From: Escherichia coli
GTDB lineage: Bacteria; Pseudomonadota; Gammaproteobacteria; Enterobacterales; Enterobacteriaceae
Length of the DNA stretch: 64,000 bases
Assembly: GCF_024298765.1 (NCBI RefSeq)
Contig: NZ_CP101210.1
Strand: one strand, 5' to 3'
The notes below the pieces were generated by a model. The model saw only the letters and a list, made by a program, of their open reading frames with translations, ran no database searches and was not told where the DNA came from. Positions 56,272-61,274 of this stretch are shown here, one piece after another. The position numbers and the translations under genes are program-made. The stretch's first letter is position 1. Every line of letters begins with the position of its first letter.

Positions 56272-56876
56272 TGCGGTTTCCTTTCAAAAAATCGATTTCA
56301 AGGGGAATCATTTTTATGCACGTGAGTCTACGGAAAGATTGTTACGGAAATATAACAATTGTCATAAAAAACCGGCGATAAAATCATCTATGGTCGGGAC
56401 GCGGTTTCAGGTATGATGTGAGGCTAGAATTCTGAACGCTCTCTTTTGTTGAGCATATATGGACGTCCCAGATGAGGCAAGTACTGGTTCGATGCGGTTT
56501 GCGACCATATATCCGGCGTCGTTAGTAGGTTCAATGACCTGCGCCATGATGTTATCCGGGCCCTATTTCCTAATCACTACACCGGTATTTGATTACCCAG
56601 GTCAACTTCAGACTGTTACAGGGGCGGTAGCCGTTATCTCATCAGTGAATGTAAACTCAGTTAAAAATATTTTCTATAACTTACTGTTTTTCTTTAATTC
56701 ATCACAACGGCCTTCTGCATATTAAAATCAATACTATCGCTCAAAACACGCCAGATGATTCTTGTCAGCTTATTCGCCAGCGCACCAGTGGTTTTCAGGA
56801 ACCCTCGACGGGCTTCCATCCTTTGCAGACAAATACTCAGACTGTCAGTGAGCTTTTTCACACAGCGCATTACAGA

Positions 56877-57288
56877 CTGAAATGGCACACTGAATTTGGT
56901 CACCTGAACAGAGGTGATATGCTCACCTCAGAACAAGACTGGTGCCCTAATGAAAAAAAGAAATTTTAGCGCAGAGTTTAAACGCTAATCCGCCCAACTG
57001 GTTGTTGACCAGAACTATACGGTGGCAGATGCCGCCAAAGCTATGGATATCGGCCTTTCCACAATGACAAGATGGGTCAAACAACTGCGTGATGAGCGTC
57101 AGGGCAAAACACTAAAAGCCTCTCCGATGACACCAGAACAAATCGAAATACGTGAGCTGAGGAAAAAGCTACAACGCATTGAAATGGAGAATGAAATATT
57201 AAAAAGGCTACTGCACTCTTGATGTCAGCCTCCCTGAACAGTTCTCTATAATAGGGAAACTCAGGACACGTTATCCTTTGGTCACTCT
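56877..57288 (+). mobile_element. IS911-like (IS3 family) remnant: left end plus orfA carrying a nonsense codon; orfB absent
   Basis: Left end TGAAATGGCACACTGAATTTGG..; orfA reads MKKRNFSAEFKR* then ..[39 protein letters not shown]; element ends abruptly near 57288. Confidence 0.7.
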
Positions 57289-58160
57289 CTGTGTAGTGGA
57301 TCGGTAATTCAGGACACCTCATTTTCACTGTTAATGTTAAAAAGTGAAAATGAGGTGATGCATGATCAAAACTCGTCGGACTAAACGTACCTTTTCCCCG
57401 GAGTTCAAGCTTGAAGCTATCGAACAGGTGGTTAAATACCAGCGTGATGTCAGAGAAGTCGCGCTGGCACTCGAGCTCAACCCTGACCATTTGCGTAAAT
57501 AGATACGGTTGTATAAGCAGGAACTTCAGGGTATTGAGCCCGCTGGTAATGCTATTACTCCTGAACAACGCTAAATTAAGCAGCTTAAAGCGCAGATAAA
57601 GCGCCCTGAGATGGAAAAAGAAATACTAAAGCAGGCTGCCGTGCTGATGAGCGAAATCCCCGGGGAAACTGTCGCGCTAATCACACAGCTGAAAGCAAAG
57701 TGGCCAGTGCGGGTTCTTTGTCATTTATTCGGTATTCACCGTAGCATTTATTACGCGCAGGTGAAGCGTCCTGTTAATGTGCAAAGAATTGAATTACGAA
57801 GTCGGGTGAGGGCTGTCCATGCTCTCAGTCGTGGCGCAGTCGGTAGCCGGGCAATCAGTCAGATGTTGCGCCATAGTGGCGTTGATGCAGGCCGGTGGCT
57901 GGCACGACGACTGATGCGGGAATGCGGGCTGACAAGTCGACAGCCAGTTAAACATCACTACCGGGTAAACGAAGACAAAAGTCCGCCATTGCCAAATTTA
58001 CTGAACCGGCAATTTCACCCCGCCGCACCAAACCGCGTCTGGTGCGGCAACATCAGTTTTATTCGCCTGCAGGACAAATGGTGTTATCTCGCACTCGTTG
58101 TTGATTTATATTCACGGCGGATTATCGGTTCAGCCCTCTCATTAACCGCTGATGCTGAGT
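57289..58160 (+). mobile_element. Degenerate IS3-family element: orfA with two in-frame stops, orfB truncated by IS66 insertion
   Basis: orfA from ATG 57362 MIKTRRTKRTFSPEFKLEAIEQV.. with TAG and TAA stops; orfB fragment (ORF 57611..58165) ..RVWCGNISFIRLQDKWCYLALVVDLYSRRIIG.. ends where IS66 end begins. Confidence 0.6.
57316..57357 (+). promoter_or_regulatory. Perfect 15-bp stem hairpin overlapping the ribosome-binding site of the IS3-family orfA
   Basis: CACCTCATTTTCACT-(12 nt)-AGTGAAAATGAGGTG; the 3' arm contains GAGGTG 5 nt upstream of ATG at 57362. Confidence 0.5.
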
Positions 58161-58198
58161 TGTAAGCGTACAGCGAGGGCCGTATTGACGGGGATGTG

Positions 58199-59736
58199 TT
58201 ATTCAGCTGGCAGTGCTATGCGCCACGGAAGCAGTTCGCTGACCCGGTTGACCGGCCAGTCTGCTATGACGCCAAGCACATGGCGAAGGTAACTTTCTGG
58301 ATCCACGTCATTCAGTTTGCACGTCCCTATCAGGCTGTACAGTAGCGCTCCCCGCTCACCACCATGGCCAGAGCCGAAGAACAGGAAGTTTTTACGACCC
58401 AGACTTACCGCCCGCAGGGCATTTTCAGCGATGTTGTTGTCGATTTCCACCCAGCCATCGTTCGCATAGTACGTCAGTGCCGGCCACTGGTTAAGTGCGT
58501 ACGCGAACGCCTTCGCCAACTCTGAGTGTCGCGACAGGGTCTTCATCTTTTCACGCAACCAGCTTTCCAGGGATTTCAACAGCGGTTTCGTTTTTCGCTG
58601 ACGTTCAGCAAGCCGCTGCTCTGCCGGCATTCCCCTTATATCCGCCTCTATGGCGTACAACTGACCGATCTGCTCCAGGGCTTCTTCCGTCAGTGCTGAC
58701 GGGATGCGGACGTGCACATCGTGGATCTTTCGGCGGGCATGAGCCCAGCAGGCAGCTTCCGTTATCCCACCATTGCGATACAGCTCGTTGAACCCGGCGT
58801 ACGCATCCGCTTGCAGCACACCGCTGAAGCAAGCAAGATGAGTCTGCGGATGGATGCCTTTTCTGTCCGGGCTGTAAGCGAACCACACTGCAGGTGCCAA
58901 CGCTGACCCGGCATTGCGGTCATCACGAACATACGCCCACAACCGCCCGGTCTTCGTCTTCTTATTACCCGGCATCAGTACCTGGACCGGGGTATCATCG
59001 GCATGGAGTTTGCCGTCAGTCATGACATAGCCATGAAGCGCCTCTTCCAGCGGAGACAGCAGCCGGCAGCATGCATCCACCCAGCCCGACAGCAGTGAAC
59101 GGCTCAGCTCCACACCTTGCCGGCCGTATATTTCTGACTGGCGATACAGCGGGGTGTGCTCTGCATACTTCGAGGTCAGCACGCGGGCCAGCAGCCCCGG
59201 TCCGGCGATACCCCGCTCGATGGGCCGCGAAGGTGCAGGTGCCTGCACGATGGCATCGCACTGAGTACAGGCATGTTTTTCCCGTACCGTCCGGATAACC
59301 CGGAAGGCGCTACGCATCAACTCCAGCTGTTCGGCGGTATCCTCGCCCAGATAGCTCAGTGAACCGCCGCAGTTCGGGCAGCACGGCGCCGCAGGCAACA
59401 GTCGCTTTTCGTCACGGGGTAGTGATTCAGGGAACGGCTTACGGATGCGGGTCTGACGCAACGGACGCTGTACTGCGGGTCATACACCCTACCAGTCAGC
59501 GTATCGCTCTCTTTCTGAAGCCGGTTCAGATCGGCTTCCATTTGTGCGATACGGCGGGAGACTTTTTCGGAACGACTGCCGAAGTTCATCCGGCGGAGTT
59601 TATCCAGCTGCGCCTGCAGATGGTCTATTTCGCGCTCCCGGTTGCTCAGCTTTTCCTGCAGGGCGTGGATCAGCGCTTCCTGTTCGGCCAGGCGCTGTTT
59701 CAGCAGGAAGATGTCGTCAGAAGAGATGTCGTTCAT
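58199..59736 (-). pseudogene. IS66-family TnpC transposase, split by a frameshift
   Basis: N-terminal 126-aa ORF (59356..59736) and 420-aa ORF (58199..59461) overlap in different frames; together about 530 aa. Confidence 0.7.
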
Positions 59737-59785
59737 AAGCCCGTATTTTACCGGGCTTATTCTGTGACAACCAGGATAAAGAGAT

Positions 59786-60133
59786 TTACAGCATGGTCAG
59801 GGAGGTCAGCAGCCGCTTAGGCTGTCGCCAGTCGATACCTTCCAGCAGCATCGCCAGCTGCGCCTGTGTAAGGAACACTTTGCCATCACGGGCTGACGGC
59901 CAGGCGAAGCGCCCACGCTCCAGCCGTTTGGTCAGGAGGCACAGTCCGTCACCGGTGGACCACAGCAGTTTAACCTGACTGCCGCTGCGGCCCCGGAAAA
60001 TGAAAACATGGCCGGACATGGGATCGTCTTTCAGCGCCGTCTGTACTTTCGCAGCCAGGCCGTTGAAGCCATTTCTCATATCGGTGATACCGGCAACCAG
60101 CCAAATTTTGGTCCCGGAAGGTAACGGGATCAT
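59786..60133 (-). CDS. IS66-family TnpB (orfB)
   Basis: ORF track 115 aa MIPLPSGTKIWLVAGITDMRNGFNGLAAKVQ.., characteristic IS66 orfB. Confidence 0.8.
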   Translation of the reverse strand: MIPLPSGTKIWLVAGITDMRNGFNGLAAKVQTALKDDPMSGHVFIFRGRSGSQVKLLWSTGDGLCLLTKRLERGRFAWPSARDGKVFLTQAQLAMLLEGIDWRQPKRLLTSLTML

Positions 60134-60531
60134 CGCTTCAGTTCCTGTATCAGCAGAGTCAGGAGCTTTTCGCTGACATTGCCATTGAAGCGGAGCGTCC
60201 CGTGCCGGAACGTTACCTCACAGCTGATACTGAGGGTTTCCGGGTCCTCTGCGAGCGATTCTGGCTGTTCGGCAGCTGCATCGAGAGTCACAGGAAGTAG
60301 CTGGGGGCTCTCTGAAGAAGGTAATATCAGCTTTCCCTCGCGCCATTGTTGTCGCCATTTGAACAACAGATTGGCGTTAATGCCATTTTCAAGAGCAAGT
60401 TTTGAGATGTATATCCCGGGTTCACAGGAGGCAGCAACGAGCTGCTGTTTAAATTCGGGAGGATAATTAGGGCAGCCTTTTCGCCTGCCGGGAGTCACAT
60501 TTTTCTGCATATCTGACACTTTGGTTCCCAC
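60130..60531 (-). CDS. IS66-family TnpA (orfA)
   Basis: ORF track 133 aa, HTH-type N-terminus; first gene of IS66 operon. Confidence 0.7.
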   Translation of the reverse strand: MGTKVSDMQKNVTPGRRKGCPNYPPEFKQQLVAASCEPGIYISKLALENGINANLLFKWRQQWREGKLILPSSESPQLLPVTLDAAAEQPESLAEDPETLSISCEVTFRHGTLRFNGNVSEKLLTLLIQELKR

Positions 60532-60998: not shown

Positions 60999-61274
60999 GT
61001 GGCTTCTGTTTCTATCAGCTGTCCCTCCTGTTCAGCTACTGACGGGGTGGTGCGTAACGGCAAAAGCACCGCCGGACATCAGCGCTATCTCTGCTCTCAC
61101 TGCCGTAAAACATGGCAACTGCAGTTCACTTACACCGCTTCTCAACCCGGTACGCACCAGAAAATCATTGATATGGCCATGAATGGCGTTGGATGCCGGG
61201 CAACAGCCCGCATTATGGGCGTTGGCCTCAACACGATTTTACGTCACTTAAAAAACTCAGGCCGCAGTCGGTAA
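60999..61274 (+). CDS. insA: IS1 InsA
   Basis: ORF track 91 aa [40 protein letters not shown].. Confidence 0.9.

Follow-up and report, generated by a model that had tools for sequence, protein, structure and literature searches.

The locus and its truncated IS3-family element

The sequence analysed here is a 64-kb stretch of an Escherichia coli chromosome (the window, by which we mean the whole of this stretch), and sequence identical to it is present in many complete genomes. The part of interest is a succession of insertion sequences:

56878 to 57291, plus strand: IS911-like remnant, a left end and a broken orfA, into which the IS3-family element is inserted in the same orientation
57292 to 58162, plus strand: truncated IS3-family element related to ISKpn37, the left ~870 bp of an element of ~1257 bp, its right part gone
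57292 to 57332, plus strand: left terminal inverted repeat (IRL), first bases TGTAGTGG, 41 nt long against ~40 nt in intact copies
57362 to 57502, plus strand: orfA fragment of 46 codons, ending at a premature TAG (TGG>TAG at 57501)
58162 to 60531, minus strand: ISEc8 (IS66 family) insertion, cutting the IS3-family element at ~58162, with its near end GTAAGCG at 58162

Full-length copies of the IS3-family element measure ~1257 bp and have terminal repeats of ~40 nt. In the full-length NU14 copy the IRL reads TGTAGTGGATCGG... and the right terminal repeat (IRR) ends ...CCACTACA, both 40 nt long, 75% complementary and with TG...CA ends. The IRL of the window copy is one nucleotide longer because of an inserted A. 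Only the left end, at 57292 (TGTAGTGG...), is kept in the window copy, and its position is fixed by 12 copies with unrelated flanks that diverge exactly upstream of it. The hairpin described below had been proposed to mark the true left end of the element; that role is ruled out by the same 12 copies, which place the end 23 bp upstream of the hairpin.

OrfA matches PF01527 relatives, and the NCBIfam IS3 transposase model matches the truncated OrfB part with E = 5e-44 and 151 bits (cut-off 160 bits). Both orfA and orfB are broken in the window copy. The TAG at 57500 is followed in orfA by a second in-frame stop, TAA at 57572-57574 (GAA>TAA at 57572), and because of these two stops and the removal of the right part by ISEc8 the window copy is without transposase. 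The window copy also carries an extra G at 57662, in CCCCGGG(G)AAAC, compared with other copies; it brings the end of orfA and orfB into one frame (184-aa ORF, 57611-58165), and its position may be that of the programmed frameshift region or close to it.

The PGAP label of the element is just "IS3 family", no ISfinder name is assigned, and ISKpn37 is the nearest named relative; one source labels a relative "IS602", and literature mentions of ISKpn37 come from genome surveys. The upstream remnant (56878-57291) shares 93% identity with a copy that carries the annotation IS911 family. The E. coli copies that were fetched (L002-L013) are all annotated as pseudogenes, with frameshifts, internal stops or truncations. 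A Yersinia similis copy (L015) is apparently intact, with a 105-aa orfA, a 308-codon orfB ORF in the -1 frame and both ends present. The element thus seems to be extinct in E. coli, with apparently intact relatives persisting in Y. similis. Downstream, between 58162 and 61300, insertion sequences have piled up: ISEc8, whose transposase is frameshifted and whose far end could not be recognised, an IS150-like orfA fragment from 60588, and IS1 insA at 60999.

A perfect hairpin over the ribosome-binding site

A perfect stem-loop of 15 pairs with a 13-nt loop spans the inner end of the IRL and the start signals of orfA:

57315 to 57329, plus strand: hairpin 5' arm CACCTCATTTTCACT, inside the left terminal inverted repeat, with CACCTC complementary to the ribosome-binding site
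57330 to 57342, plus strand: hairpin loop GTTAATGTTAAAA, 13 nt
57343 to 57357, plus strand: hairpin 3' arm AGTGAAAATGAGGTG, including the Shine-Dalgarno sequence GAGGTG at 57352-57357

This is the hairpin of the original prediction, which had it begin at 57316, one base too far right. Its account of the stem as lying over the Shine-Dalgarno sequence of an IS3-family orfA was correct, GAGGTG being in the 3' arm 4 nt upstream of the ATG (57362). So was its mention of terminal-sequence pairing, as the 5' arm corresponds to IS nt 24-38, within the ~40-nt left terminal repeat.

No other perfect hairpin in the 64-kb window is as long, the runner-up having 13 pairs. Among 100 simulated windows (first-order Markov), the top stem was 14 pairs, seen once, and 15 pairs was reached in none. 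The 50-nt hairpin RNA folds at -22.6 kcal/mol, compared with -6.3 +/- 2.2 for shuffled sequences (z = -7.3; 0 of 200 shuffles as good). Folding with upstream sequence, in a 241-nt read-through context, bore out its stability, the hairpin being retained in both the minimum free energy and the centroid folds. An Rfam 15 search of 56700-57700 gave no match at gathering score, only chance hits to a plant microRNA model (19.8 vs 84 bits).

The second-longest perfect hairpin of the window, at 46470-46500 (13 pairs, AAGCAGTCCGGGC-TGATT-GCCCGGACTGCTT, then TTTAACTGATTATTTTT), begins directly after the stop codon of a 420-aa ORF (45206-46468) and is probably the terminator of that gene.

The imperfect hairpin is conserved among copies and relatives

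In other copies the hairpin is imperfect. The E. coli comparison set comprised 12 other aligned copies, 11 of the same IS and one ISKpn37-like copy (L005), and all 12 have the form CACCTCGAAATC-CTGTTAATGTTAAAACAGTGAAAATGAGGTG (CTG...AAAACAGTG) or single-base variants of it. The outgroup copy of Y. similis (L017) is likewise of the ancestral CACCTCGAAATC-CTGTTAATGTTAAAACAGTGAAAATGAGGTG type or a single-base variant, and relatives in other genera also carry an imperfect hairpin. [quoted passage not shown] As RNA, the ancestral leader reaches -15.4 kcal/mol (z = -4.4), with CACCUCG/UGAGGUG forming the outer helix and the inner one centred on CUGUU/AACAG, and an equivalent pairing, weaker than that of the window, is found in every other copy and in the relatives from other genera.

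The energy needed to open the Shine-Dalgarno sequence, computed on leaders from IS nt 1 to codon 7, was 9.5 kcal/mol for NU14 and 12.4 kcal/mol for the window, compared with ~3.4 when the 5' part was shuffled (at most 1 of 200 shuffles as high) and ~4 without the 5' arm. Most close relatives showed comparable masking, namely Serratia oryzae, Pectobacterium and two Xenorhabdus elements; the leader of Y. similis L015 is near-identical to the Serratia leader (L014) on which the opening energy was computed. Masking did not exceed that of shuffles in GPEC349 and Y. similis L017, both with mutated left arms. In Serratia, Yersinia and Pluralibacter the stem is extended by AAT/ATT.

Among distant relatives, found through OrfA alignment, Halomonas-type elements have the same layout in another sequence (CACCUGAUUUU/AAAGUCAGGUG), Legionella, Olavius-symbiont and related elements a CCCAGUUAAG/CUUAACUGGG stem, and a Pseudomonas element the arms ACACCUC/GAGGUGU. 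The opening energies of the Legionella, Olavius-symbiont and related leaders were 6-9.5 kcal/mol, a level reached by 0-6 of 200 shuffles. The IS911-like subgroup showed no more masking of the site than its shuffled controls. Across 16 close leaders, 80% of cells were paired, compared with 32-40% in most slid controls (64% at slide +3), and covariation in the same 16 leaders was not significant, 363 of 500 shuffles scoring as high. The right terminal repeat lacks a hairpin partner of this kind.

The conserved imperfect hairpin fits the kind of pairing between terminal repeat and ribosome-binding site by which insertion sequences silence read-through transcripts, the translational effect being a prediction here. 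The CACCTC box, innermost in the left terminal repeat, pairs with the orfA ribosome-binding site GAGGTG, with the short CTGTT/AACAG helix inside; read-through from flanking DNA would yield transcripts with both arms and a masked ribosome-binding site. The suggestion that such pairing blocks translation of read-through transcripts is in this way favored for the imperfect form, present in all copies and relatives, and fails for the perfect stem as a regulator at this locus, where the copy is dead. Transcripts from the circle-junction promoter typical of the IS3 family would also carry the 5' arm, and strong masking would then damp the transposase burst.

A candidate promoter between the arms

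For silencing to be selective, native transcripts would have to escape it, and the loop holds a candidate promoter from which they could start:

57308 to 57313, plus strand: weak candidate -35, TTCAGG
57329 to 57337, plus strand: candidate extended -10, TGtTAATGT (IS nt 37-45), proposed from motif conservation and the analogy with IS2 PIRL

The loop motif is CTGnTAATnT, and 16 leaders all agree in its C, TG, TAAT and final T. In IS2, another IS3-family member, a weak promoter of the extended -10 type lies immediately inside the IRL (PMC3299598); by analogy, TGnTAATnT is probably the extended -10 of a weak promoter belonging to the element itself. Since consensus promoter scans of the window and NU14 copies found nothing, the case for this promoter is built on the conservation of the motif and the IS2 analogy. 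A native mRNA would have its 5' end within or beyond the 3' arm, would not include the 5' arm and could be translated; RNA from the predicted start site is unstructured (z = +1.1).

By eye and unscored, -10-like hexamers also lie between the arms of relatives (TAATGT, GATAAT, TATGAT, and TATAAT in Shewanella L042), which suggests that a -10 in the loop is a clade-wide layout. Possibly, an anti-Shine-Dalgarno box in the IRL, a -10 in the loop and a ribosome-binding site in the 3' arm form a general, undescribed design of a large IS3/IS911-related clade.

The strongest competitor of RNA-level masking holds that the conserved quasi-palindrome is mainly a protein site on DNA, a transposase-binding inner repeat combined with an OrfA operator over the promoter, and that the RNA pairing is incidental. 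It can draw on the position of the 5' arm inside the IRL, on CAGGACACC and CCTGTT being common to the IRR, on the CTGTT...AACAG palindrome that flanks the candidate -10, on the binding of IS2 OrfA just upstream of PIRL at the inner IRL end (PMC3299598), and on the lack of significant covariation. In addition, CACC, which is used by four of the outer pairs and is also found in the right repeat, could make that part of the complementarity a by-product of a transposase-binding sequence meeting a GGTG-type ribosome-binding site. However, the outer pairing includes the ribosome-binding site itself and is extended in a lineage-dependent manner (AAT/ATT in Serratia, Yersinia and Pluralibacter), and distant relatives keep a stem over the ribosome-binding site with unrelated sequences. 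Moreover, the IRR is without such a palindrome, and Xenorhabdus lost the inner palindrome while keeping the outer pairing. We therefore judge it unlikely that the conserved form is mainly a DNA site, although a DNA-level role for the inner palindrome (as a transposase/OrfA operator, as in IS2) is a live rival.

The perfect stem is confined to one locus

The perfect 15-bp stem had been presented as a property of the insertion sequence, and it was found at one chromosomal locus only. The 81-nt left end was recovered in 648 records among 5,426 complete E. coli genomes: 41 at 99% identity or more, none at 95-99%, and 607 at 80-95%. All 607 other left-end records have the imperfect form, and none has the perfect stem. 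The junction of the IS911-like remnant with the IS3-family element occurs in exactly 41 E. coli genomes, all 41 with the perfect allele, and no further record matches across it. A metagenome scan of 241 million records returned the perfect left arm in three contigs, all of the same locus and allele. The perfect stem is thus restricted to 41 of 5,426 E. coli genomes and three metagenome contigs. Neither an 18-bp intermediate nor the perfect allele at another site was found in these genomes or in the metagenome scan, and the ancestral hairpin state was not found at this locus in the 41 junction genomes. The expectation that other copies share the inverted repeat accordingly holds for the imperfect form; the perfect one is absent from them (0 of 12 copies, 0 of 607 records).

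That the perfect form might be the ancestral one is ruled out by the outgroups (the ISKpn37-like copy L005 and Y. similis L017) together with parsimony. On this comparison of genomes, the perfect stem is a private, derived allele and no part of the element's design.

A template switch as the probable origin of the perfect stem

The window copy differs from its nearest copies (NU14) at 38 positions in 874 nt (~4.3% divergence). In the left arm, the edits relative to NU14 are 57321 G>A, three A>T at 57322-57324 and an inserted A at 57327. The derived features of the hairpin are the following:

57321 to 57327, plus strand: derived 7-nt patch ATTTTCA in place of ancestral GAAATC, the exact reverse complement of TGAAAAT at 57345-57351
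57342 to 57343, plus strand: 1-nt deletion (C) at a site where all other copies read AAAACAGTG

Had the C at 57342/57343 been retained, the stem would comprise 18 perfect pairs. Over these 18 nt, reverse-complementing the ancestral right arm AACAGTGAAAATGAGGTG gives exactly the left arm now present, CACCTCATTTTCACTGTT. As a DNA hairpin, the 18-bp palindrome would fold at -19.5 kcal/mol, compared with -7.9 for the ancestor.

Quasi-palindromes are mutation hotspots in E. coli, where template switching makes repeats perfect or more perfect (PMC7202029), and it has been argued that template switching also creates and maintains RNA hairpins (Monttinen & Loytynoja; PMC8794818). From its sequence, we read the 7-nt patch in the left arm as the signature of such a quasi-palindrome template switch, probably a single event. 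The nascent strand would have folded back on the imperfect repeat and copied its own other arm, replacing 7 nt on the left by the reverse complement of the right-hand sequence and giving an 18-bp perfect palindrome; a separate, later 1-nt deletion would have left the 15 perfect pairs seen today. The simplest version would be an intramolecular switch on the nascent leading strand, because it is the left arm that is rewritten and the fork moves from right to left. Regarding fork direction, NZ_CP027118.1 starts at dnaA (plus strand) and carries the locus, oriented as in the window, at 4.17 of 4.72 Mb; the plus strand of the window has a negative GC skew. The 1-nt deletion needs an explanation separate from the templated event.

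Alternatively, the changes could have accumulated as several separate point mutations, whether selected or not, or have been brought in by recombination from a different IS variant. A divergence of ~4.3% from the nearest relatives leaves time for changes, and the extra deletion is at least one independent change inside the hairpin. However, five edits fall within 7 nt where ~0.3 would be expected, each yielding the exact complementary base; the chance that four substitutions are all complementary is ~1/81, before clustering and the matching inserted base are considered. In addition, neither intermediates nor a ATTTTCAC donor variant occurred in the 5,426 E. coli genomes or the metagenome scan. 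We consider an origin by point mutation or recombination quite improbable.

The reading that we prefer is therefore a joint one: the imperfect hairpin is a conserved leader feature with a native promoter, and its perfect version arose by a template switch in a dead copy. To this combination we assign a probability of roughly 0.6. A wider and more tentative proposal is that template switching is the usual route by which these IS leaders gain, lengthen and keep hairpins masking the ribosome-binding site. Co-evolution of the arms would then proceed through one-step conversion and not through paired point mutations, the AAT/ATT extensions and the unrelated Halomonas- and Legionella-type stems would be earlier functional instances, and the window would record such an event in a dead copy. 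It is conceivable that this route is the usual one, although we would sooner expect that it is not.

The perfect hairpin as a silencer or a terminator

The perfect hairpin might also be under selection as a functioning silencer of transposase translation in this element. It is very stable (-22.6 kcal/mol), covers the ribosome-binding site, persists in read-through from the upstream IS911-like remnant and raises the opening energy to 12.4 kcal/mol. Against this, the allele is private to one locus, and all other copies, including the apparently intact relative, use the imperfect form. Two orfA stops and the missing right part leave nothing to regulate: the window copy makes no transposase, and the perfected hairpin is therefore without a current regulatory role. 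Selection for silencing at this locus is in our view highly improbable. As a stable stem-loop between two co-oriented IS remnants, the hairpin could in principle be an intrinsic terminator or insulator, but there is no T-run on either strand (ATGCATGATC downstream), a terminator scan of the window and NU14 copies was empty and the centre of the stem is A/T-rich, which leaves this reading hardly any probability.

Relation to known systems and significance

As in IS10 and IS50, an inverted repeat near the left end places its 3' arm over the translation start signals of the transposase gene. For the window element, the prediction is that native transcription begins downstream of the 5' arm, so that the stem would form in foreign transcripts only. 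IS10 and IS50 differ in belonging to the IS4 family, whereas the element of the window belongs to the IS3 family and has a 5' arm that falls within the terminal inverted repeat itself and is anti-Shine-Dalgarno-like. A further difference is that IS3-family junction-promoter transcripts would contain the 5' arm. The details of the IS10 and IS50 read-through transcripts are reportedly to be found in the work of Davis, Simons and Kleckner from 1985 and of Schulz and Reznikoff from 1991. Masking of translation signals in both elements is cited in a preprint (bioRxiv 10.1101/2025.01.24.634351).

Direct masking of translation signals is documented for IS200 (PMC4513863). There too, a leader hairpin in the tnpA 5'UTR directly masks the Shine-Dalgarno sequence, and it was shown to block 30S binding (PMC4513863). 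The IS200 stem, however, lies inside the native transcript and is constitutive, acting alongside an antisense RNA and Hfq; no antisense element was found at the window element. With IS2 PIRL and IS911 pIRL and pjunc, the element shares IS3-family membership and, for its predicted promoter, the position of a weak indigenous promoter at the inner edge of a ~40-bp left repeat (PMC3299598). It differs from the IS911-like relatives sampled, in which the ribosome-binding site was masked no more than in shuffles.

On the mutational side, the thyA hotspot and the lacZ QP reporters of E. coli (PMC7202029) have in common with the window a prior imperfect repeat, a clustered change that includes an indel and, as product, a more perfect palindrome templated by the other arm. 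The window differs in being a natural, fixed case in an IS leader, seen by genome comparison and with an extra 1-nt deletion. In the hairpins described by Monttinen & Loytynoja (PMC8794818), a one-step mutation likewise makes many stem positions complementary in transcribed sequence, whereas here the hairpin is in a non-functional copy, an instance of the mutational process without adaptive use.

The regulatory principle and the mutational mechanism are both already known, and the locus is a tidy example of them with no new mechanism. Its direct importance is little, the element being dead and both processes known. It is nevertheless a clean natural example of a bacterial multi-base mutation cluster that would really be one templated event, which is relevant when selection or divergence is inferred from mutation clusters, or function from perfect palindromes. 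Beyond this, there is a hint that a sizeable IS3/IS911-related clade sets an anti-Shine-Dalgarno-like box in the IRL opposite the orfA ribosome-binding site, with a promoter -10 between them; this clade-wide layout, if true, would be a candidate general guard against activation by outside transcription.

Several observations were made on other leaders. In the distant relatives L042 (Shewanella surugensis), L055 (Pseudomonas akapageensis), L048-L056 and L062, a near-consensus -10 hexamer sits in a nested hairpin loop between the IRL box and the ribosome-binding site, reading TATAAT in L042, TATGAT in L055 and GATAAT in the Legionella/Olavius-symbiont group. The leader of the IS911-like remnant (56900-56952; also L020, L024-L032, L044 and L047) contains four mutually complementary boxes, in the order CACCU, GAGGUGA, UCACCUC and (C)AGGUG, the last at the ribosome-binding site. 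Leaders of this type have a -10-like hexamer, TATGCT or TATCAT, in the loop of the middle hairpin, and alternative pairings are possible. The Gamma 3 endosymbiont of Olavius algarvensis (L051, L057-L093) carries dozens of near-identical copies of a related IS3-family element (40% OrfA identity) on three scaffolds, a massive IS expansion.
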